From NCBI GenBank assembly GCA_017427285.1, contig JAFRTE010000020.1, positions 30,849-94,848 of the forward strand: 64,000 nucleotides of DNA, read 5' to 3'. This DNA comes from Clostridia bacterium (GTDB lineage: Bacteria; Bacillota; Clostridia; Oscillospirales; UBA644). The notes under the pieces are model-generated. The model saw nothing but the letters and a program-made list of their open reading frames with translations, had not been told where the DNA came from and searched no databases. Below, in pieces: positions 11,431-48,645 of the stretch. How positions within the stretch are numbered: position 1 is the first letter of the stretch; each line of letters opens with the position of its first letter. The position numbers and the translations under genes were made by a program.

Positions 11431-12059
11431 TCTATGGCTCCTATCTTGTTGAACGGGAAAAATCTGACGAATACCTTGCCGAGAAGCGTTCTAACGTCAA
11501 CACTGCCTATCGAGCGACTGTCTACGGAGTCCGTGCGGTTGTCTCCCATTACGAAAACGTGGCCTGCGGGGACGGTATACGGATATTCTATCGGTGCGCC
11601 GGCGCGTTTCGTTGTGATATTGCCCGTAAGGTAGGGTTCGTTGAGGATTACGCCGTCTACAAGCACCTGTCTCGTTTCCTCGTTGATATCCACGACCTGT
11701 CCCTCCGTTGCGATAACGCGCTTTACGAGAAGCTTGTTTTCGCCGTGGATATATCTTCTTGTAAGCTCGCTTGACTGGGGCTGAAAAACAACTATGTCGC
11801 CCTGCTTCGGCGTGTAAAACAGCTCGGAAACAAGATATCTGTCGCCGTCGTTCATCGTGGGGACCATAGACGTCCCGTCAACGTATCCCGTTCTTACAAC
11901 AAGCGTAAGAAGAAATACCGCCGCTACAACGGAGGTTACGATAATATCGACGAAATAGTCGAAAAATCCCTGAACGAAAGTCCTTTCGTTTTCAGGTTTT
12001 TTTTCGGACGGTGACGGAGTTTCGGTTTTCTCGGGGGTAATTACATTGTTTTCGTCCAT
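11427..12059 (-). CDS. lepB: signal peptidase I
   Basis: GTSMVPTM (Ser box), KRVIA (Lys box), GDNRTDSVDSR. ATG 12059 (MDENN) is preceded by CAGGAG. The longer ORF to 12137 would run through a terminator hairpin. Confidence 0.85.
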   Translation of the reverse strand: MDENNVITPEKTETPSPSEKKPENERTFVQGFFDYFVDIIVTSVVAAVFLLTLVVRTGYVDGTSMVPTMNDGDRYLVSELFYTPKQGDIVVFQPQSSELTRRYIHGENKLLVKRVIATEGQVVDINEETRQVLVDGVILNEPYLTGNITTKRAGAPIEYPYTVPAGHVFVMGDNRTDSVDSRSIGSVDVRTLLGKVFVRFFPFNKIGAID

Positions 12060-37889: not shown

Positions 37890-38333
37890 TTATTCTTTGA
37901 CAGTCGCAAGCAGCTTGTAAAGCAGGGTGTAAAGATGCAGGGCGTCGTCGGGGGGCAGAGAAACGCATTTTACGATTTTGCTCGGTATTTCTGCCGCGCG
38001 TTCCTTCAGCCGTTCGCCTTTTTCGGTAAGATTTACCGTTACGCTTCGCTCATCGTTTTTGTCTCTTAATTTGGAAACGAAGCCCTTATCTTCAAGACTT
38101 TTTAAAACGGGAGAAAGCGTGCCCGAATCGAGAAAAAGCTTTTCGCCGAGCGTTTTAACGTTTATGCTTTTCTCTTCCCACAGCACCATCATCGCGATAT
38201 ACTGCGTGTAAGTAAGACCTATTTCGTCAAGAAACGGTCTGTATTTCTTGATTATTTCCCTCGACGCGGCGTAAAGGGGGAAACAGATCTGATTTTCAAG
38301 CTTTAAAGCGTTGTATTTTTCTGCGTTTTCCAT
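37890..38333 (-). CDS. ohrR: organic hydroperoxide resistance regulator OhrR (MarR family)
   Basis: Close similarity to B. subtilis OhrR along its whole length, including the sensing Cys in LENQICFPLY (Cys17). A second Cys is at position 123. Confidence 0.85.
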   Translation of the reverse strand: MENAEKYNALKLENQICFPLYAASREIIKKYRPFLDEIGLTYTQYIAMMVLWEEKSINVKTLGEKLFLDSGTLSPVLKSLEDKGFVSKLRDKNDERSVTVNLTEKGERLKERAAEIPSKIVKCVSLPPDDALHLYTLLYKLLATVKE

Positions 38334-38340
38334 CTGGGCT

Positions 38341-38883
38341 TTATCCGACGCACTCGGCTATTTTATCGTTAAGAGTTTTCATATCCGTCGGCTCGAAGCG
38401 CGCTACGATGTTTCCTTCGCGGTCGATAAGGAATTTTGTGAAATTCCATTTGATATTGCCGTTGTTTTTGTAATCCTTGTCGTTTTTCTTTACAACGCCC
38501 GAAAGGATTATGCTCATGGGCGATTTGCCGAAGCCCTCGAATTTAGTGTTTTCGGTAAGCCATTTGTAAAGAGGAATGGCGTTTTCGCCGTTAACGTCGA
38601 TTTTCGCAAACTGCGGGAAAGTTATGCCGAAACGGCCTTTGCAGAAGGTGTGGATCTCTTCGTTGTCGCCGGGTGCCTGTTCGCCGAACTGGTTGCACGG
38701 AAAATCGAGGATTTCAAAACCCTTGTCTTTGTATTCCTCGTAAATCTTCTGAAGCTCTTCATATTGCGGGGTAAAGCCGCAGCCCGTCGCAGTGTTTACC
38801 ACCAAAACAACCTTGCCTTTGTATTCCGAAAGCGCATGGTCTTCGCCTTTTCTTGTTTTAACCGTAAAATCGTATAAATTCAT
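38341..38883 (-). CDS. gpx: glutathione peroxidase family protein (Cys type)
   Basis: VNTATGCGFTPQY active-site Cys region, plus FPCNQFG and WNFTKFLI motifs. Confidence 0.9.
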   Translation of the reverse strand: MNLYDFTVKTRKGEDHALSEYKGKVVLVVNTATGCGFTPQYEELQKIYEEYKDKGFEILDFPCNQFGEQAPGDNEEIHTFCKGRFGITFPQFAKIDVNGENAIPLYKWLTENTKFEGFGKSPMSIILSGVVKKNDKDYKNNGNIKWNFTKFLIDREGNIVARFEPTDMKTLNDKIAECVG

Positions 38884-39988: not shown

Positions 39989-40021
39989 GAATGCGGTCAT
40001 AATTATTTCATAATTGTTTTA

Positions 40022-40050
40022 TTGACAAAACGCAATGATTATTGTATAAT
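40022..40050 (+). promoter_or_regulatory. exact-consensus sigma-70 promoter of tRNA-Ser
   Basis: TTGACA (40022-40027), a 17-nt spacer, then TATAAT (40045-40050), about 30 nt upstream of the tRNA. Confidence 0.8.
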
Positions 40051-40079
40051 ATATATCGCCGAAGCAAAAGTGAATATTT

Positions 40080-40167
40080 GCAGGAATATCGAAGCGGTCA
40101 TAACGAGGCGGTCTTGAAAACCGTTTGGCCAAAAGCCACGGGGGTTCGAATCCCTCTTCCTGCGCCA
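40080..40167 (+). tRNA. tRNA-Ser (anticodon UGA), class II with long variable arm, CCA encoded
   Basis: I folded it by hand. Acceptor is GCAGGAA/TTCCTGC. Anticodon arm is GCGGT-CTTGAAA-ACCGT. The variable arm is GGC-CAAAA-GCC. T arm is GGGGG-TTCGAAT-CCCTC, discriminator G, then CCA. It is very similar to Bacillus tRNA-Ser(UGA). Confidence 0.9.
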
Positions 40168-40335
40168 GAATTAAATGACAGCCATTTGGCTGTCATTTAA
40201 TTATTTGTATTGAATATGGGATTCGAACCCGAGAGAGTTTCGGCGTTAAGCAAAGTCTCCTGCGGAGAGTTTGCAGTCGAAATCGCGAAGAGCATTGCTC
40301 TGAGCGGACAGTATGCGAGCAAAGCGAAGCAGACG
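40146..40335 (+). repeat. tandem unit 1 (190 bp): tRNA 3' end + terminator block R1 (40146-40206) plus spacer S1 (40207-40335)
   Basis: It repeats at +190 with 4 mismatches that I found by eye (40207, 40226, 40261, 40328). Confidence 0.9.
40171..40207 (+). terminator. terminator hairpin after tRNA-Ser (copy 1)
   Basis: 13-bp perfect stem TTAAATGACAGCC-ATTT-GGCTGTCATTTAA followed by TTATTT. Confidence 0.8.
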
Positions 40336-40525
40336 TCGAATCCCTCTTCCTGCGCCAGAATTAAATGACAGCCATTTGGCTGTCATTTAATTATTTTTAT
40401 TGAATATGGGATTCGGACCCGAGAGAGTTTCGGCGTTAAGCAAAGTCTCCAGCGGAGAGTTTGCAGTCGAAATCGCGAAGAGCATTGCTCTGAGCGGACA
40501 GTATGCGAGCAAAGCGACGCAGACG
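40336..40525 (+). repeat. tandem unit 2 (190 bp): R2 (40336-40396) plus spacer S2 (40397-40525)
   Basis: R2 is an exact copy of the last 22 nt of tRNA-Ser (TCGAATCCCTCTTCCTGCGCCA) plus the 39-nt terminator region. Confidence 0.9.
40361..40397 (+). terminator. terminator hairpin copy 2
   Basis: Identical hairpin, 190 bp downstream. Confidence 0.7.
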
Positions 40526-40588
40526 TCGAATCCCTCTTCCTGCGCCAGAATTAAATGACAGCCATTTGGCTGTCATTTAATTATTTTT
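40526..40588 (+). repeat. terminal partial unit R3 (63 bp)
   Basis: Exact copy of R2, after which the sequence diverges into unique DNA. Confidence 0.9.
40551..40588. terminator. terminator hairpin copy 3, also positioned to terminate the convergent rubrerythrin operon
   Basis: Identical palindromic hairpin followed by TTATTTTT. It lies 26 nt from the rubrerythrin stop on the other strand. Confidence 0.7.
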
Positions 40589-40613
40589 CAGTTTAATACT
40601 ATTACAGTTTAAC

Positions 40614-41150
40614 TCAATAATTCTCTGCTTTAACTTCGAAATATGCCTGCGGGTGATTGCATACGGGGCAGACGTCGGGAGCGGCCTCGCCGTAGTGGAT
40701 ATGTCCGCAGTTTGCGCATTTCCATACGGTCATCGTCGGTTTTTTGAAAGCTTTGCCCGAATTGATGTTTTCAAGAAGCTTTAAATATCTTGCTTCGTGC
40801 TCTTTTTCAATTGCCGCTACGCCTTCGAAAAGCGCCGCGATGTCGTCAAAGCCCTCTTCTCTTGCGGTCTTCGCAAAATCCGCATACATCTGAGTCCACT
40901 CAAAGTTTTCGCCCTGAGCCGCGGCGAGCAGGTTTTTATCCGTTTTTGCAACGCCGCCGTTAAGAAGCTTATACCAGAGTTTTGCATGTTCTTTTTCGTT
41001 TGCCGAAGTTTCCGCAAAAATGTTGCTTATCTGAACGTAGCCGTCCTTTTTTGCCTGTGAAGAATAATACTGATATTTAACGCATGCCTGAGATTCGCCC
41101 GCAAATGCGGTTTCGAGATTTTTTTCGGTTTTACTGCCTTTGAGTTCCAT
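40614..41150 (-). CDS. rbr: rubrerythrin
   Basis: N-terminal ferritin-like diiron domain (two ExxH motifs: [16 protein letters not shown]) and a C-terminal rubredoxin-like CANCG...CPVC. Confidence 0.9.
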
Positions 41151-41176
41151 TGTTTTTATCCTCCGTTCGTTTTATC

Positions 41177-42700
41177 TTATTTTTCGGTTATAAATCTGTG
41201 CGTGCTTACTCCGTCTATTTCCTCTGCTTTCGCATAAACGACTTCTCCGTCAAAGCCGAGCTTATCCTTTAACTGCGAAAGATGCTTTTTCATATCGGGA
41301 AGGTGCGTTACGGAAATAACCCTTGCTTTGTAAAGCGCGGCGACGGCAATAAATTCGCTTAAGGCGACGGACGCTTCGTCAAACGATGTAGACTGATAAA
41401 CCTCGTTGAAAAGCAGCATGTCGTTCGGCTTTAGCATGTCAAGGAAGCCCGAAACGGTTTCGACCTCTTCTTCAAAACGTCCCTGACCGACGTCGAGAGC
41501 CGTAAAGTATGCGTATACGCCGGCAACGGGCGTGATTACTGCTTCTGTGCAGGGGACGGGCAGAGCCGCCTGTCCGAGCAGCTGAATAATGCCGACAGCC
41601 CTTAAAAATACGGTCTTTCCGGCGTTGTTTTTACCCGTTATGATATACGCCGCGCAGTCTTTGCCGAAAATTGCGTCGTTAGGGACAAGCACGTCGCCGG
41701 GACGTTCGTTTCTGTTTTTCTGATACTGTTTGAGCGAGAACCACAGATCGTATATGTTTTTGCACTCGAATCTGTTGCCTTCCGTGCAGAATTCGGGAAT
41801 GCACATCGGAAGACCGAGCCGCTCGTAAGTACGTTCGAGTATCGCCGCAAAGTCGTAAAAGTAAAATCCGTCGCGTATCTTGTCAAACGGTTTTTTCATC
41901 TGATAAGTTACCGATTCCATAAATGAAACGAGCTTTATCATGCTTCTTTCCGCAAGGAACTGGAGCTGCTGATCGGAATCGACGTCAAAACCGATCGAAA
42001 TAACGGTTTTGTCCTTGTCTTTAAGTACGGGAGTGTCAGGACCGTAATTGTAAGGATCGGAAGTAAGCGCAAACATCTCGCAGTCCAGGATACGGATATA
42101 TTTGTCAAGCTTTGTTAAAATAACGAACGACGTGTTGAGATTGAGCGATTCGGCAAGCTCGGAAGCGACTGCTTTAAGCTCTGCGAATGCGGGATTTTCG
42201 ACCTGCGCATTGACAAATTCGCGCATTTTCAGCATAAGCTCGGAGCGAAGGTCTTTTTTGGCGAGCGTTTTGCCGTACTGTTCGTAAATTTCCTGTATCT
42301 TCAAAATACAGTCGGCAAGTGTCTGGACGGTGAATATGGAGGACTCTCTGTCCGAAGTGGTGGCTCTGCCGCCGGTTGTTGTGATTATAGACGACGCGGA
42401 CGTTTTAACGATCTTGAGCGCGTCTTCAAGCTTGAGATTAAGTCTTTCGATAAGCTCAAACTCGTGAAGAAGCGAAGCGTTTCGTCTGAAATCGTCGAGT
42501 ATCTCTTTTCTCCAGATAAGATTTTCCATATCCTGTTCGGGATGGCTTAAAAGCGCAAACATCTTTTTCTGAAGGATTATATCTACCGTAACGCCGCTTA
42601 CGACCTCGTCAAGCAGCAAGCTTTTCATGGACATTTCAAGCTGTTTTGACGATTCGGTTTTTGAAGGGTTTTTGTAAAGAAGATCAAATTCGGGATACAT
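41177..42700 (-). CDS. MutS domain V-like ATPase, paralog B (no mismatch-binding or Smr domain)
   Basis: Walker A ITGKNNAGKT, Walker B-like MLLFNEVYQSTS, His-loop SVTHL. ATG 42700 lies 1 nt after the upstream stop, with GGGAGG inside the upstream gene. Confidence 0.7.
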   Translation of the reverse strand: MYPEFDLLYKNPSKTESSKQLEMSMKSLLLDEVVSGVTVDIILQKKMFALLSHPEQDMENLIWRKEILDDFRRNASLLHEFELIERLNLKLEDALKIVKTSASSIITTTGGRATTSDRESSIFTVQTLADCILKIQEIYEQYGKTLAKKDLRSELMLKMREFVNAQVENPAFAELKAVASELAESLNLNTSFVILTKLDKYIRILDCEMFALTSDPYNYGPDTPVLKDKDKTVISIGFDVDSDQQLQFLAERSMIKLVSFMESVTYQMKKPFDKIRDGFYFYDFAAILERTYERLGLPMCIPEFCTEGNRFECKNIYDLWFSLKQYQKNRNERPGDVLVPNDAIFGKDCAAYIITGKNNAGKTVFLRAVGIIQLLGQAALPVPCTEAVITPVAGVYAYFTALDVGQGRFEEEVETVSGFLDMLKPNDMLLFNEVYQSTSFDEASVALSEFIAVAALYKARVISVTHLPDMKKHLSQLKDKLGFDGEVVYAKAEEIDGVSTHRFITEK

Positions 42701-42701
42701 T

Positions 42702-44264
42702 TTACTTTTCCTCCCTCTTCTTCTGTATGCGTTCAAGCATCTGCTCTACCGTCATATCGTATTTCAGAAGAATATCTCTTGCAAACGATGAGTTCTGAGT
42801 GCTGAGCGGTACGATCTTGTATAGCCGTTTTCCTGTTTTTTCGTCGTTTAACGCCGTAAGTACGCCGGCGCTGTGCGGTCTGTCCGCCGTTTCCGCGGCA
42901 TAGTCTTTAAGACTGTGAAGGTGCGTTACGAAAAGCCCCGAAATATCGTGTTTGAGCACTTTGTCCACAAGTTCGGTCGAAAGCTTATAAGCGATATCCG
43001 CTTTTGTTGACGAATAAGTTTCGTTGAAAAGCGCAAGACTCTGTCCGTCCGTAACATCCCGCAAAATTCTTTCAACTCTGCCCTGTTCCTCAACAAGTCT
43101 GCCGGAGTTGTCGTTGTATTCCTCAACGGGGAAGTGAGTAAACATGCGCTTCATTATTTTTATCTTCGCCCTTTTTGCGGGAACGTGGCCGCACGCCTGG
43201 AAAAACAGCTGGCAAAGACCGACTGCGGAAAGATAAATCGTTTTTCCGCCCGCGTTCGGGCCGGTGATAAAGAAAAACGAGCTTTTTTCGTAAACGTAGT
43301 CGTTATATACGACCTGATCGGGCGCAAGACCTCTTTTGACAAGGAAAAGACTGTAAAAATCAAGGATATCCGTTGTCTCGGCAGGCGTTGCCTTTACGCA
43401 GGCAAAGCCCTTTTCGTTTATTTCCCTGAAAATTCTCGCAAAGCCGATAACCGCGTCGAGTTTTTTTATCAACCCGAGCCATGCGGTATCGAAAACGTCT
43501 TTGTATTTCTCGTGGAACGTATCGATATTTTTGAAAATATCGTAATATAGAGTGTAAAGCGATTTGAAAACGGGGCGCGTAAACTCTCTCGGCTGATGTA
43601 CTGCCGGCGCATACGCCTCCGAAACGTCAAGCCCGAGTCTGCCGGTAATTCCGGCAAGGTTCATCATAAGCGATTTGTCCTCGGTTTTGGGGATTATGCT
43701 GTTTTCTATATTCTGTCCGCGCGAAAAATATCTGTTTAAGCGTATTTCGCCTATCGTTTCAAGACTTTCGCGAAGACCCGCCATATCTTTGAGTATCGCT
43801 GCAAGCTCCTGTTTTTTGCTGTCGGAATACGCTTGAGAAAGAATTGCTTTTACTGATTCGGAAAGATCGCTTTTGCCCAGCGCTTCCGCGCCGTCCATAA
43901 ATTTCCTGTATACTTCCGTAAATTTCTCTATTATGAGAAATGTTTTCATCGTTGCCATTTCGGGGACGTTTTTAAACATTTTAAGCTCGTAAAGCAGGTT
44001 GAGATCCCACAGATCGGAGCGCAGATCGCAAAACAGCGAGAAAAATCCGTCGTTTTTGATAAGATCGCCGACGATATCCGCGCGGTAAGAGATTATTTCG
44101 CTGTCGCTGCAAAACTGATTGAGTATTTCGAGCGTTGCCTCTTCCTGCTCTTTTGACGAGAGAAAAGCGTTAAGAAGCTCCTCAAGCTGCATGTCAACGG
44201 CAACGCAGTAGTCAAGCGGTTTTACATCCGGCTGAGCTTTTATCGGATCGAAAAACAGTTTCAT
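42702..44264 (-). CDS. MutS domain V-like ATPase, paralog A (domain III-like N-terminus, no domain I, no Smr)
   Basis: Walker A ITGPNAGGKT, Walker B-like LALFNETYSSTK, His-loop FVTHL. The N-terminus carries the MutS core-like segment ISYRADIVGDL. Confidence 0.7.
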   Translation of the reverse strand: MKLFFDPIKAQPDVKPLDYCVAVDMQLEELLNAFLSSKEQEEATLEILNQFCSDSEIISYRADIVGDLIKNDGFFSLFCDLRSDLWDLNLLYELKMFKNVPEMATMKTFLIIEKFTEVYRKFMDGAEALGKSDLSESVKAILSQAYSDSKKQELAAILKDMAGLRESLETIGEIRLNRYFSRGQNIENSIIPKTEDKSLMMNLAGITGRLGLDVSEAYAPAVHQPREFTRPVFKSLYTLYYDIFKNIDTFHEKYKDVFDTAWLGLIKKLDAVIGFARIFREINEKGFACVKATPAETTDILDFYSLFLVKRGLAPDQVVYNDYVYEKSSFFFITGPNAGGKTIYLSAVGLCQLFFQACGHVPAKRAKIKIMKRMFTHFPVEEYNDNSGRLVEEQGRVERILRDVTDGQSLALFNETYSSTKADIAYKLSTELVDKVLKHDISGLFVTHLHSLKDYAAETADRPHSAGVLTALNDEKTGKRLYKIVPLSTQNSSFARDILLKYDMTVEQMLERIQKKREEK

Positions 44265-44267
44265 TTA

Positions 44268-44984
44268 TCAAAATCCTTTCTTCATCTCAACATAATGTTT
44301 CTTTCTCATGGCGCGGCGCGCGGCTTTGAATACCGCCCTCGCTTCCTTGCCCGAAAGCGCGCTTTTTGCGGGTTTGGACGGGAAAAAGCTGTTTGCAACG
44401 GCTATGCCGTAATAGATAGTGTCTCCGTCAACGATATCTATATTGCTTTTAGTCCTTACGAATTTTACGGAAGGATTGATCAGCACAACAGGCACGCACG
44501 ATACGGGCATATCTTTTATCGCGTAGTTTACGCTCGCCGCATATTTAACGAGCCCGACAGGCGATTTTCTTTTGCGTTTATGTACGGTAAAATTGTGAAA
44601 AGCCATCGTCATCGTGCCGATAATACCCTCGTTTTCCGTGGGAGCAAGACCTCGGTGGCTCGATATCTCCCAGTAATCGGGGTCGGAAAACATTACGGTC
44701 GATTTCAGCTTGCGGTAGCTTCTGAGTTTGATAAGGTAAAGCTTGTTTCCCGAAAGAAGCATATAGTCGGGTTTATGATTCCAGAAATGGGGGATAATAA
44801 ACCCCGGCCAGCCGACCTTTGCGAATTTTGCGCCGCAGAAAAGGCATCTGAAAAAAAGAATGATCCTTAATACGATATATCTTGTCAGCGGTATTATAAC
44901 AAAACACAGCAAAGCGACCGTTGTTGCCGAAATGAGGATAACAAGCCCGAAAACCTGAAAAAACGACATCGCCAGAGGCAGCAT
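44268..44984 (-). CDS. hypothetical membrane-anchored protein (weak NERD-like pattern)
   Basis: One or two N-terminal TM helices. The segment KPDYMLLSGNKLYLIKLRS loosely resembles a NERD / PD-(D/E)xK core but lacks the acidic residue. The stop is 3 nt before the next gene. Confidence 0.45.
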   Translation of the reverse strand: MLPLAMSFFQVFGLVILISATTVALLCFVIIPLTRYIVLRIILFFRCLFCGAKFAKVGWPGFIIPHFWNHKPDYMLLSGNKLYLIKLRSYRKLKSTVMFSDPDYWEISSHRGLAPTENEGIIGTMTMAFHNFTVHKRKRKSPVGLVKYAASVNYAIKDMPVSCVPVVLINPSVKFVRTKSNIDIVDGDTIYYGIAVANSFFPSKPAKSALSGKEARAVFKAARRAMRKKHYVEMKKGF

Positions 44985-45019
44985 CTTTATTCAATCTCCG
45001 TTTCATATTGTCTCATTAT

Positions 45020-45048
45020 ATTATATCATATCTTATTTGATAATTCAA
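45020..45048 (-). promoter_or_regulatory. putative promoter of the membrane protein/MutS-like operon
   Basis: On the minus strand, TTGAAT (45048-45043), a 17-nt spacer, then TATAAT (45025-45020). Confidence 0.6.
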
Positions 45049-45111
45049 CAGTTATTTTATGTCATTTATCGTAAAAAGAAAAAAAGAGTTTGGGGTATAT
45101 CCGATTTTATA

Positions 45112-45140
45112 TTGATATTTGGATTTTTTTGTGCTATAAT
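45112..45140 (+). promoter_or_regulatory. putative promoter of the ABC exporter operon
   Basis: TTGATA (45112-45117), a 17-nt spacer ending in TGC, then TATAAT (45135-45140). Confidence 0.6.
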
Positions 45141-45188
45141 TAGACAATGAAAATTCTTGCCTTGTCTGGCGGATAAAGGAACAGGGAT

Positions 45189-46901
45189 ATGATAAAGCTT
45201 CTGCGTTATCTTAAAGGACACCGCGCTGAAAGCATTCTCGGCCCGCTTTTCAAGTTTCTTGAAGCGTGCTTTGAGCTTACCGTGCCGGTCATAGTGGCGA
45301 ATATGATAGACGTCGGCATCAAAAACGGAGATGCAAATTACGTTTTGATGTGCGGCGGCATTGTTGTTTTTATGGGACTGCTCGGCTTTGTAAGCGCGAT
45401 CACCGCGCAGTATTTTGCCGCGAAGGCGTCAATGGCTTTCGGAACGGAGCTGAGAAACGATCTTTACAGACATATCGCGTCTTTTTCTTCCGCCGAACTT
45501 GACAGATTCGGCGCGTCGTCGCTGATAACGCGTCTCGGCGCGGACGTTATTCAGACGCAGTCGGGGATCAATCTTATTCTGCGGCTTTTGCTTCGCTCTC
45601 CGTTTATTGTTGCGGGCGCGGTCGCAGCGTCGTTTATTATAAACGTCCGTCTTGCGCTGATACTGCTTTGCGCGGTGATATGTCTTTCCGCAACGGTGTG
45701 GATTATAATGAGAAAGCTCCTGCCTCTTTATACAAAAACAAGAAAGAATCTTGACAGAATAACCGTAAAAACGAGGGAAAACCTTACCGGCGCAAGAGTA
45801 GTGCGTTCGTTTGCGGCTCAGGACGGCGAAAAAGAAGAATTTGACGCCGCCGCGGAAGGGCTTTATACTTCGCAGATAGTTTCGGGCAAAATATCGGCGC
45901 TTTTAAATCCGCTTTCGTATTCGGTCGTAAATCTCGCGGCCGCCGCGCTCATGTGGTTCGGGGCGTTTTCGGTCAATATCGGAGACGTTACTCAGGGACA
46001 GATAATTGCGCTTCTCAATTACATGACTCAGATACTCATCGCGCTGCTTGCGCTTGCCAATCTGATAGTAATGATAACAAAATCCACGTCGTCCGCCGCA
46101 AGAATAAACGAAGTGTTTGACGTTTCCCCGTCGCTTGAGGACGGAAGGGAAACTCTCGGCGACGTAGAAAAAATAGAGTTTAAAAACGTTTCATACAAAT
46201 ATCCAGGCGCGTCGGGATATTCCGTTAAGGATATTTCTTTTACCGTAAAAAGGGGAATGACGGTAGGAATAGTGGGCAGTACGGGCTCGGGCAAATCGAC
46301 AGTTGCGTCTCTGATCCTGCGCGAAGCGGACCCGACTGACGGGGAAGTTGAGGTGAACGGACGTCCGCTTAAGGATTATACTTTTCGGTCTCTTCACGCA
46401 GCTTTCGCCGCAGTGCCTCAGAAGGCGTCCCTTTTTTCGGGAACCGTGCGTGAAAATCTTTGCTGGCGCGATAAAAACGCAACTGACGAAGAGCTTTTTG
46501 CCGCTCTTAAAACCGCAATGGCATCGGATTTTATAGGCGACGATCTTGACAGACGCGTTGCAAAGGCGGGCGCAAATTTTTCCGGCGGACAGAGACAGCG
46601 CCTGACGATCGCGCGCGCTCTCGTAGGACGTTCCGACGTGCTTTTGCTTGACGACAGCGCTTCCGCGCTCGACTACGCTACGGATGCGGCGCTTCGAAGG
46701 GAGATATCTGCTCTTCCCGGAAATAAAACGGTATTTATCGTTTCACAGCGTATTTTTGCGGTCAAAAATGCGGATATGATAATCGTGCTTGACAACGGCC
46801 GCCTTGCGGGAACGGGCACGCACGAAGAGCTGCTCGGGTCTTGTCCCCTTTATGCGGAGATATGCGCTTCACAGACGTCGGAGGTGCGGAATGAAAAATA
46901 A
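45189..46901 (+). CDS. ABC transporter ATP-binding/permease protein (type I exporter half-transporter)
   Basis: Six-TM domain followed by an NBD with GSTGSGKST, the signature FSGGQRQRL, and LLLDDS. Confidence 0.9.
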   Translation: MIKLLRYLKGHRAESILGPLFKFLEACFELTVPVIVANMIDVGIKNGDANYVLMCGGIVVFMGLLGFVSAITAQYFAAKASMAFGTELRNDLYRHIASFSSAELDRFGASSLITRLGADVIQTQSGINLILRLLLRSPFIVAGAVAASFIINVRLALILLCAVICLSATVWIIMRKLLPLYTKTRKNLDRITVKTRENLTGARVVRSFAAQDGEKEEFDAAAEGLYTSQIVSGKISALLNPLSYSVVNLAAAALMWFGAFSVNIGDVTQGQIIALLNYMTQILIALLALANLIVMITKSTSSAARINEVFDVSPSLEDGRETLGDVEKIEFKNVSYKYPGASGYSVKDISFTVKRGMTVGIVGSTGSGKSTVASLILREADPTDGEVEVNGRPLKDYTFRSLHAAFAAVPQKASLFSGTVRENLCWRDKNATDEELFAALKTAMASDFIGDDLDRRVAKAGANFSGGQRQRLTIARALVGRSDVLLLDDSASALDYATDAALRREISALPGNKTVFIVSQRIFAVKNADMIIVLDNGRLAGTGTHEELLGSCPLYAEICASQTSEVRNEK

Positions 46902-48645
46902 AAACATAAAATCCGACGGCGTTGTAAAAAGAATAATCGCGCTCGTTTTTCCTTACCGCATTCAGCTCGTTTTTTCTCTTGTTTTCGCAGCGGCTTACGT
47001 AGCGCTTTCGCTTTTCGCTCCCATTGTTTCGGGCAGGGCGGTTGACGCGATGGTTACGAAAAACACGGTCGATTTCGACGCGGTATTCAGATACGCGGTA
47101 ATTTACGCTTGTGTGGTGGTCGGGGCGTCGGTCTGTCAGTGGCTGATGACTCATCTTACAAACATTATTACTTACAAAACGGTTCTGAAACTGAGAAGAG
47201 ACCTCTTTTACAAAATAACCGATCTTTCCGTAGGATATATCGATTCACACGCTCACGGAGATATATTATCGAGAGTAATAAACGATGTTGAGCAGCTTTC
47301 CGACGGACTTCTGATGGGATTTTCACAGCTTTTTACCGGAATACTCACCATTGCGGCAACGATAGGGTTTATGATCTCAATAAATATCCCGATCGCGCTC
47401 GTTGTGGTCGTGTTTACTCCGCTTTCGCTTTTTGTAGCGTCGTTTATAGCCAAAAATACGTATTCGATGTTTAAAAAGCAGTCCGAAATACGCGGAGATA
47501 TGACTTCGCTTATAGAAGAATCGATAGGCGGCGCAAAAACAGTAAACGTTTTCGGGAGATTTGACGAGACGGCGGAGAAAATCGCAAAAACGGGGGAGGA
47601 GCTTCGCAAGTGCGGCGTAAGAGCGCTGTTTTTCTCTTCGATAACAAACCCCGCAACGCGTTTTGTCAACAACGCCGTGTATGCCGCCGTTGCGATTCTC
47701 GGCGCATTTTCCGCAATAAAGGGCGGAGGAATAACGGTAGGCCAGCTTTCGTCGTTTTTAATGTATGCAAATCAGTATACAAAGCCGTTTAACGAAATAT
47801 CCGGAGTAATAGCGGAGTTTGTGGGCGCAAAAGCTTCCGCGGAGCGTATTTTCGACTTGCTTGACGAAAAGAGCGTTGAATCGTCGCTTTCGGGCAATAA
47901 AATACCCGAAAAAGCGCAGGATATCGATTTTTCGTCCGTATCTTTTTCGTATTCTCCCGAAAAGCCGCTTATAGAGGACTTCTGCCTGTCTGTTCCGTAC
48001 GGAAAAATGATCGCGATCGTAGGGCCTACGGGATGCGGAAAAACAACCCTTATCAATCTGCTGCTGCGTTTTTACGACGTAAATTCGGGTGAAATACGAC
48101 TTGGCGGCGTTCCCGTAAAAGAGCTTGAGCTCAACTCTCTTCGCAGAAGCTTCGGCATGGTCTTGCAGGATACGTGGCTGAAAAACGGAACGGTCGCGGA
48201 AAACATAGCATACGGCAGAAAAAACGCAACGCGTGAAGAAATAGTCGCCGCAGCGGTGCGCGCTCACGCAGACGGATTTATTTCAAGTCTTGAAAACGGT
48301 TACGATACCGTAATTAACGAGGACGGAGACAACCTATCTCAGGGACAGAAACAGATGCTTTGCATAAGCAGGGTAATGCTTTCGCTGCCGCCGATGCTTA
48401 TACTTGACGAGGCAACGTCATCGATAGACACGATGACGGAGCTTCGGATAAGACGCGCGTTTGACGAAATGACGGAGGGTCGCACGAGCTTTGTTGTTGC
48501 TCACCGCCTTTCCACGATAACGAAAGCGGATCTTGTGCTTGTAATGAAAAACGGAAAAATCGTTGAAAAAGGCACTCACGAAAAACTGCTTGAAAGCGGC
48601 GGATTTTATAAAACGCTTTATGAAAGCCAGTTTGAAACGGAATAA
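46891..48645 (+). CDS. ABC transporter ATP-binding/permease protein (heterodimer partner)
   Basis: TMD plus an NBD with GPTGCGKTT, the signature LSQGQKQML, and LILDEAT. ATG 46891 overlaps the upstream stop (ATGAAAAATAA). Confidence 0.9.
   Translation: MKNKNIKSDGVVKRIIALVFPYRIQLVFSLVFAAAYVALSLFAPIVSGRAVDAMVTKNTVDFDAVFRYAVIYACVVVGASVCQWLMTHLTNIITYKTVLKLRRDLFYKITDLSVGYIDSHAHGDILSRVINDVEQLSDGLLMGFSQLFTGILTIAATIGFMISINIPIALVVVVFTPLSLFVASFIAKNTYSMFKKQSEIRGDMTSLIEESIGGAKTVNVFGRFDETAEKIAKTGEELRKCGVRALFFSSITNPATRFVNNAVYAAVAILGAFSAIKGGGITVGQLSSFLMYANQYTKPFNEISGVIAEFVGAKASAERIFDLLDEKSVESSLSGNKIPEKAQDIDFSSVSFSYSPEKPLIEDFCLSVPYGKMIAIVGPTGCGKTTLINLLLRFYDVNSGEIRLGGVPVKELELNSLRRSFGMVLQDTWLKNGTVAENIAYGRKNATREEIVAAAVRAHADGFISSLENGYDTVINEDGDNLSQGQKQMLCISRVMLSLPPMLILDEATSSIDTMTELRIRRAFDEMTEGRTSFVVAHRLSTITKADLVLVMKNGKIVEKGTHEKLLESGGFYKTLYESQFETE

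Follow-up and report, generated by a model that had tools for sequence, protein, structure and literature searches.

The stretch analysed here, 64,000 nucleotides of contig JAFRTE010000020.1 from a Clostridia bacterium (assembly GCA_017427285.1; hereafter the window), carries on its minus strand two adjacent genes for short MutS-like proteins, which we call A and B, preceded by a third gene, X. We found that X, A and B are kept together and in this order in related genomes, and that A and B share an altered ATPase site whose Walker B Asn-Glu is invariant in their families. The reading that we favour, with a probability of roughly one half, is that the triad encodes a membrane-tethered, heterodimeric MutS-like ATP switch that takes no part in mismatch repair. 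An earlier note on this DNA, made from its letters and open reading frames (ORFs), had described the pair A-B; the conserved third gene X is a new element that the note did not cover.

Genes A, B and X

Gene A (42702-44264, minus strand) starts with ATG and encodes 520 residues, comprising a MutS-like lever, a tip loop, an ATPase domain and a C-terminal helix-turn-helix. Gene B (41177-42700, minus strand) encodes 507 residues from the ATG at 42700, and its product is a paralogous MutS-like subunit with the architecture of A minus the C-terminal helix-turn-helix. An in-frame TTG at 42736 would give B a longer ORF, but every homologue begins at MYPEF instead. At the junction, a single base (42701) separates the TAA stop codon of A (42702-42704) from the ATG of B (42700-42698), and a ribosome-binding site for B, GGGAGG (42710-42715, minus strand), lies within the 3' end of A, 9 nucleotides ahead of that ATG. 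The adjacency and sizes of the two genes, checked on ORFs and raw sequence, and the single-nucleotide gap with its internal GGGAGG, checked on the raw sequence, are as the earlier note had given them. The junction varies among relatives, the two genes abutting in locus L001 and overlapping by 1 nucleotide in L004 and L017. A and B are full-length paralogues (hhalign probability of 100% over 490 aligned columns), and both are acidic, with isoelectric points (pI) of 5.7 and 5.0, respectively.

Gene X (44268-44984, minus strand) encodes 238 residues, and its TGA stop codon lies 3 nucleotides ahead of the ATG of A. A hydrophobic anchor (residues ~5-50) lies at the N terminus of the protein, which also has a very basic alpha/beta domain with a pI of 10.1. 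No match to X was found in Pfam, NCBIfam, PADLOC or PHROGs, and its homologues form only 14 clusters among 5.8 billion proteins, in which A accounts for ~24 clusters and B for ~16 to 20. Judged from its sequence, X is a putative membrane-anchored orphan protein. Its AlphaFold2 model is of moderate quality (predicted local distance difference test score, pLDDT, of 69) and has no significant fold neighbour, all structural matches having E>0.1; RuvC, a resolvase and the C-terminal domain of UvrC are among these weak matches.

The order X-A-B was found in 23 of the 23 close loci with enough flanking sequence, which include 18 species-level genomes of uncultured rumen and gut Clostridia/Oscillospiraceae. 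Among these loci the lowest identities are 35% (A), 41% (B) and 26% (X), the genes around the triad differ, and the ORFs are intact in all relatives. Co-conservation of A and B, on which the two-subunit proposal of the earlier note depended, is therefore seen wherever the flanks allow it to be assessed. The triad is also present in two distant clades, at loci L010 and L031, where genes resembling X precede the pairs (E values of 3.6e-6 and 3.8e-4, respectively, with the X profile). As read, both of these genes share 4 nucleotides with the first MutS gene, although L010 allows an earlier start of that MutS gene.

Pfam reports one domain in each protein, MutS_V (E values of 5e-15 for A and 1e-14 for B), and no match to MutS_I, MutS_II, MutS_III, MutS_IV or Smr in either of them, even at E<=1. 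The NCBIfam models for MutS proteins score A and B at 40 to 52 bits, against cut-offs of 480 to 642. By homology, however, the proteins hold more than an ATPase domain. About 500 residues align to MutS domains III to V (lever and ATPase) in profile and fold comparisons, and the family profile covers residues 333-832 of human MSH2, that is, domains III, IV and V. In a Foldseek search with the AlphaFold2 model of A (pLDDT 82.9), the best matches were MSH3, MSH2, the core of MutS2 and MutS, with alignments longer than 500 columns. In both kinds of comparison, the ~330 N-terminal residues correspond to a lever of the MutS domain III type. The beta-rich clamp (domain IV) is reduced in the model to a loop of ~25 residues, at positions 174-197 of A. 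The position of this DNA clamp of MutS is occupied by a lever-tip motif, RLNRYFSRGQNIENSI (residues 175-190; 43695-43742, minus strand), predicted with low confidence; the close A family keeps this motif almost without change, in the pattern R-x-N-R-x-F-S-R-G-x-N-x-E-N-S. Both proteins terminate at or before the helix-turn-helix of the ATPase domain, an element kept in A and missing from all B-type second genes.

The label 'MutS domain-V-only' of the earlier note is thus accurate for Pfam matches and too narrow for homology, since a domain III lever and a vestigial clamp are present. Its statement that the N-terminal mismatch-binding domain and the Smr domain are missing was upheld by the Pfam search, and the absence of domains I, II and Smr makes a role in mismatch repair unlikely, as it had proposed.

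The altered ATP site and its superfamily

Both proteins have the MutS-type Walker A motif that had been pointed out in the earlier note: GPNAGGKT in A (residues 335-342; 43239-43262, minus strand), of which G335, N337, G340 and K341 are invariant, and GKNNAGKT in B (residues 356-363; 41612-41635, minus strand), located in the raw sequence and in the family alignment. At Walker B, A reads LALFNE (residues 410-415; 43020-43037, minus strand), with Asn414 where MutS has Asp, and B reads MLLFNE (residues 428-433; 41402-41419, minus strand), with Asn432. The canonical hhhhDE with its Mg2+-coordinating Asp is absent from A and B, and the LFNE announced for both was read directly. When the family profile is aligned to MSH2, Asn414 falls on the Asp of the Walker B motif DELGRGTS. 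A second change affects the 'STF' signature of MutS, which contacts the ATP bound to the partner subunit: the position of its Ser-Thr is taken in A by Gly388-Arg389 (43098-43103, minus strand). The Walker A Lys, the catalytic Glu and the H-loop His are all retained in A and B.

The Asn, which the earlier note had pointed out in this pair, turned out to be the hallmark of a superfamily of ~3,000 clusters. Asn-Glu (N-E) at Walker B is invariant in the family alignments of A and B, down to members of ~25% identity, and was present in 122 of 122 related ORFs from 91 loci in several groups (Clostridia, Limnochordia, Chloroflexota and Deinococcales, and the cultured Ruminococcus flavefaciens, Pseudobacteroides and Herbivorax). 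A profile search of 1.84 billion representative proteins returned 2,978 matches at E<=1e-30. The top 150 of these are all full-length matches above 360 bits; among the 146 Walker B motifs read from them, 139 have N-E and four have Asp-Glu (D-E), and GR[LF] or GK[LF] replaces STF in 139 of 146. The change from Ser-Thr to Gly-Arg accompanies the Walker B Asn in the same proteins. All 27 MutS1 and MutS2 proteins recovered by the same searches have D-E. On this sequence evidence, the Asn-Walker-B superfamily would consist of ~3,000 clusters at 50% identity and would also contain MutS4A and MutS4B. No NCBIfam model covers it, and it includes natural two-copy fusions (P0093 and P0094).

A subclade within the superfamily (P0186, P0214, P0222 and P0233) has D-E at Walker B yet retains GR[LF], and it clusters in our trees with a solo gene of Ruminococcus flavefaciens. 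Because it is nested in the Asn superfamily beside that gene, its Asp looks like a return from the Asn state.

Escherichia coli MutS with the Asp-to-Asn change at Walker B, D693N, has been characterised. The mutant has the wild-type turnover number (kcat) at 10 mM Mg2+ and exceeds the wild type at higher Mg2+; it binds Mg2+ poorly and ATP ~15-fold more weakly, and mismatched DNA no longer stimulates it, so that coupling to DNA is lost (PMC2857095). By analogy with this mutant, the altered ATP chemistry suggested for the pair in the earlier note is plausible.

MutS4 was defined in 2007 by Lin, Nei and Ma for MutSac-only proteins, as a rule the products of two neighbouring genes, MutS4A and MutS4B, which overlap at their stop and start codons; what these proteins do had not been studied at that time (PMC2190696). 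A tblastn search of plasmids with A identified pairs in Enterobacter, Klebsiella, Citrobacter, Rhodococcus, Tsukamurella, Burkholderia, Alicyclobacillus and Rubrobacter. Table S3 of Kim et al. 2017 (PMC5742357) gives the second gene of the Rhodococcus pair, WP_064074690.1, as MutS4B, so these plasmid-borne pairs are MutS4 in the published sense. They have N-E and G[RK]L, match the A/B profile over their full length at 250 to 324 bits, and, in the cases examined, overlap by 4 nucleotides at the stop and start codons. The earlier note had described paired proteins of this type as usually annotated just as MutS and as having no assigned function; pairs of this kind have in fact borne the names MutS4A and MutS4B since 2007 (PMC2190696), and there is one study on recombination (PMC5742357). 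In the MutS4A first genes of L092-L094 (Tsu_1, Ent_1 and Ali_1), the H-loop His is lost, VTF[IV]D standing for VTH, while MutS4B keeps it. This difference suggests that MutS4 may combine one degenerate and one competent ATP site.

Phylogenies were all neighbour-joining trees, and bootstrap support is given as ATPase-only / full-length alignment. The separation of the whole Asn superfamily from MutS1 and MutS2, which the earlier note had left to be examined, is clear (100 / 92). A-type first genes (94 / 70) and B-type second genes (99 / 100) form separate, well-supported clades, so the duplication appears to be old, with both copies retained. MutS4A and MutS4B are each supported at 100. Placement inside the superfamily is less settled: MutS4B comes out as the sister of the B-type clade with low support (66 / 40), and the A-type genes fall with solo genes and away from MutS4A. 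From these groupings, the window pair would be a distinct branch of a MutS4-like superfamily.

The MutS4-type genes differ from the triads in what lies upstream of them. A fluoride riboswitch (Rfam RF01734) lies directly upstream of MutS4-type genes in L093 (3220-3280), L094 (3371-3432), L095 (3222-3284) and L097 (5119-5180), and upstream of a natural fusion of 1,026 residues in L098 (4695-4757). It is thus found in five of the seven MutS4-type loci examined, and a sixth, L096, has a riboswitch-crcB unit and an enolase gene nearby. Neighbours of the riboswitch-linked genes include crcB, eno, gpmA, a CLC channel, DUF190, a cation/proton antiporter and USP, and mutS genes downstream of the crcB motif had been reported by Weinberg et al. 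in 2010 (PMC2864571). Rfam detected no fluoride riboswitch in the window at the gathering threshold, none over 40000-46000 at E<=10, none in 17 other X-A-B loci, and none in 11 loci with solo genes or other pairs. Likewise, no crcB, CLC-F, enolase or pyrophosphatase gene stands beside any X-A-B triad. A link between the window locus and a fluoride riboswitch was rejected on these Rfam searches; our own pattern in the code of the International Union of Pure and Applied Chemistry found ~6 of 9 true riboswitches and was not relied on.

The MutS4 island of Mycobacterium yongonense also carries hydrogenase and NADH-dehydrogenase genes (PMC5742357). Since formate hydrogen lyase genes are reported after fluoride riboswitches (PMC2864571), this island may be a fluoride island too, in which case the interpretation of its effect on recombination may need revisiting.

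Surroundings of the operon

A promoter-like site precedes X on the minus strand (45020-45048; TTGAAT, a 17-nucleotide spacer with TG, and TATAAT), identified by consensus match only. X shares a promoter gap of 204 nucleotides with a divergent pair of ABC exporter genes (45189-48645; 570 and about 580-618 residues), whose synteny is maintained in relatives of >=70% identity. For the second exporter ORF the listed start, which makes it overlap the first by 113 nucleotides, is probably placed too far upstream.

Downstream, a rubrerythrin gene identified by Pfam (40614-41150, minus strand) begins 26 nucleotides after B. No minus-strand terminator was predicted between B and this gene, and from X onward none was predicted before a perfect palindrome with a 15-bp stem at 40549-40582 (unstranded), just past the rubrerythrin stop codon. 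The palindrome is likely a two-way terminator that ends the operon. Rubrerythrin adjoins B in relatives of >=70% identity and not in more distant triads, and is probably co-transcribed with X-A-B in this lineage only. The palindrome, AATTAAATGACAGCC-ATTT-GGCTGTCATTTAATT, occurs in each unit (at 40169, 40359 and 40549) of a 190-bp tandem repeat at 40080-40588, with 2.3 copies that are 98% identical. The repeat begins inside the 3' end of a tRNA-Ser(TGA) gene (40080-40167), and each unit repeats this 3' end; the array could consist of duplicated attachment-site remnants or of reiterated terminators. In locus L018, a Gut-1 small RNA (Rfam RF01706) was found downstream of the tRNA at 11611-11678, with 52.3 bits for a gathering score of 50.

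The same-strand genes downstream of B comprise, after rubrerythrin, a glutathione peroxidase (38341-38883) and a MarR-type regulator (37890-38333); these two names come from the translations, and adjacency in relatives was examined for rubrerythrin only. A role in oxidative stress, considered in view of these three genes, was not retained, rubrerythrin being adjacent only at >=70% identity. The operon has the GC content of its neighbours, which gives no sign of a recent horizontal transfer. No common theme was seen in the neighbourhoods of the solo relatives from Ruminococcus flavefaciens and Pseudobacteroides cellulosolvens.

Possible functions and comparison with known systems

How could such a triad work? 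In the reading that we favour, X, A and B would be translated from one transcript, and A would pair with B in a heterodimeric ABC ATPase of the MutS family. Like every MutS dimer, this one would build two composite ATP sites at the interface of its subunits, each having Asn for the Mg2+-coordinating Asp and Gly-Arg for the Ser-Thr that reaches the gamma-phosphate of the partner's ATP. Such a site would turn over ATP while holding Mg2+ and ATP weakly, and would couple the two sites differently, making A-B a slow ATP-gated switch and not a dead enzyme. X would hold the acidic A-B dimer at the membrane, where it may clamp or remodel a nucleic-acid or nucleoprotein substrate.

Several observations point this way. 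We infer the heterodimer from the translational coupling, the strict co-retention of ancient paralogues, the natural fusions and the asymmetric loss in B of the helix-turn-helix, which is a dimer-interface element. A heteromer, as the earlier note had anticipated, seems likely on this evidence. That the sites would be active but differently gated is suggested by D693N, which stays active with altered handling of Mg2+ and ATP. Tethering by X is suggested by operon logic and by the complementary charges of X and A/B.

Other considerations weigh against this reading. We infer, and do not observe, the contacts between A and B and those of X with either of them. The role of X as a tether or adaptor comes from operon logic, for a protein whose model has a pLDDT of 69 and no recognisable fold. 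A nucleic-acid substrate is not indicated by the sequences, A and B being acidic and devoid of the beta-rich clamp. The kinetic argument is borrowed from a mutant of a distant relative in which the Ser-Thr to Gly-Arg change is not present. Finally, the neighbouring genes other than X offer no functional hint.

A bolder version extends to the whole superfamily: the Asn/Arg site would be a Mg2+-sparing ATP switch that resists metal-fluoride, with membrane-tethered X-A-B remodelling or rescuing stalled or poisoned complexes and not repairing DNA. We hold this to be speculative and rather doubtful. If true, it would define a new functional class of MutS proteins, with the fluoride-riboswitch MutS4 as one branch and the X-linked triads of gut and rumen Clostridia as another.

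Four other scenarios are considered: a halide or ion-stress module, a modulator of recombination, a defence cassette and degenerate relics.

The pair may act as the fluoride-riboswitch MutS4 pairs do, being differently regulated in this lineage, and one possibility is that it rescues or reactivates complexes poisoned by Mg-fluoride by means of a fluoride-tolerant ATP site. The plasmid MutS4 pairs share N-E, G[RK]L and full-length similarity with A and B; five MutS4-type loci have the riboswitch ahead of the genes, with crcB, eno, gpmA, CLC or DUF190 nearby, in line with the mutS genes described after the crcB motif (PMC2864571); and B is sister to MutS4B in both trees. However, this last relationship is weakly supported, the X-A-B loci have neither the riboswitch nor adjoining crcB, CLC-F, enolase or pyrophosphatase genes, and X is absent from MutS4 pairs. 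We therefore consider a halide or ion-stress role unlikely for the triad.

A second scenario is that A-B is a DNA clamp that promotes or restrains homologous recombination, a role that has been proposed for mycobacterial MutS4 and was once proposed for MutS2, with X as a DNA-binding or nuclease partner. It would make use of the MutS lever and ATPase scaffold, and X is very basic, with RuvC, a resolvase and the C-terminal domain of UvrC among its non-significant fold neighbours. Moreover, recombinants were recovered more often from M. smegmatis when it carried the MutS4 operon of M. yongonense (27 of 36 colonies sequenced, compared with 5 of 16; PMC5742357). However, this is a single small experiment and the island looks like a fluoride regulon. 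In addition, the DNA-contacting clamp has shrunk to its ~25-residue loop, A and B are acidic throughout, Pfam, NCBIfam and PADLOC detected no nuclease motif or domain, and the fold hints for X are all non-significant. It seems improbable to us that the triad modulates recombination or repair. If the pair were just another slow DNA clamp, the outcome would be a useful re-annotation and little more.

The triad could also be an anti-phage or abortive-infection cassette, in which A/B would act as an ABC-ATPase sensor and X as a membrane or nuclease effector freed on infection. A compact three-gene unit, found in different chromosomal contexts in different genera and with the narrow, patchy distribution given by the cluster counts above, would fit such a cassette, and the pairing of a transmembrane protein with an ATPase resembles some defence systems. 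A and B also have weak matches, limited to the P-loop, to the PtuA, AbiL and AriA models. These, however, span ~20 residues with E values of 0.006 or worse; no PADLOC family is matched significantly, and X has no match at all. The flanks contain no defence, integrase or transposase genes, GC content is native, synteny with housekeeping genes is stable among close relatives, and relatives are rare in phage records. A defence function is accordingly given little credit.

Lastly, that the loss of the canonical Walker B Asp in both subunits killed catalysis and left inactive scaffolds or near-pseudogenes is very improbable, given the strong purifying conservation across phyla of the Walker A Lys, catalytic Glu, H-loop His and Asn, the intact ORFs in all relatives, and the activity retained by D693N (PMC2857095).

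Knowing what X-A-B does would give a role to a gene pair that is widespread among bacteria of the gut and rumen, and would test whether the altered site is adaptive, low Mg2+ and fluoride being examples of what it might be adapted to. This could explain the 'mutS' genes located after fluoride riboswitches, known since 2010 (PMC2864571).

Among known systems, MutS1 and the MSH proteins share with A and B homology over domains III to V. A dimer with composite ABC sites, proposed here for A-B, is likewise what they form, and eukaryotic MSH proteins are obligate heterodimers of paralogues. A and B differ from them in the absence of domain I, with its Phe-X-Glu mismatch wedge, and of domain II, in the vestigial clamp, in the Asn at Walker B, and in scores far below the family cut-offs.

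MutS2 also lacks domains I and II, consists of a lever and ATPase core (the Thermus thermophilus and Bacillus subtilis cores are among our top fold matches), and provides a precedent for a MutS ATPase acting on a substrate other than a mismatch. It is a homodimer, formerly seen as an anti-recombination nuclease, that senses ribosome collisions and splits ribosomes, and its KOW and Smr domains are needed for recruitment to the ribosome. In contrast to A and B, MutS2 has canonical D-E and STF; A and B have neither KOW nor Smr, and reach 44 to 59 bits where the cut-off of TIGR01069 is 400.

KamC, the reactivase ATPase of lysine 5,6-aminomutase (NCBIfam NF052383), is similar in size (~508 residues), has its ATPase domain at the same position, and is a named short MutS-like protein with an assigned role outside DNA repair. 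A and B score 45 bits each against its cut-off of 300, and no aminomutase genes are nearby. Membership in KamC was rejected, as A, B and ten other superfamily members gave 45 to 88 bits, none of them reaching the cut-off. MutS itself is known from textbooks for DNA repair. Together, MutS2 as a splitter of collided ribosomes and KamC as a reactivase reopen the question of what the other short MutS relatives do.

The closest counterpart is MutS4. The likeness extends to two adjacent paralogous genes of ~500 codons with MutSac/MutS_V present and MutS-I and MutS-II absent, to translational coupling at the stop and start codons, to N-E at Walker B and G[RK]L for STF, and to the weakly supported grouping of B with MutS4B. 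On the other hand, MutS4 pairs have no X gene and X-A-B loci no fluoride riboswitch; A keeps the H-loop His that MutS4A has lost, and does not group with MutS4A; the genes are separated here by a 1-nucleotide spacer where MutS4 codons overlap; and B is entirely without the C-terminal helix-turn-helix. The MutS4-like pairs are of an already known kind, barely studied so far, and the X-linked triad is new.

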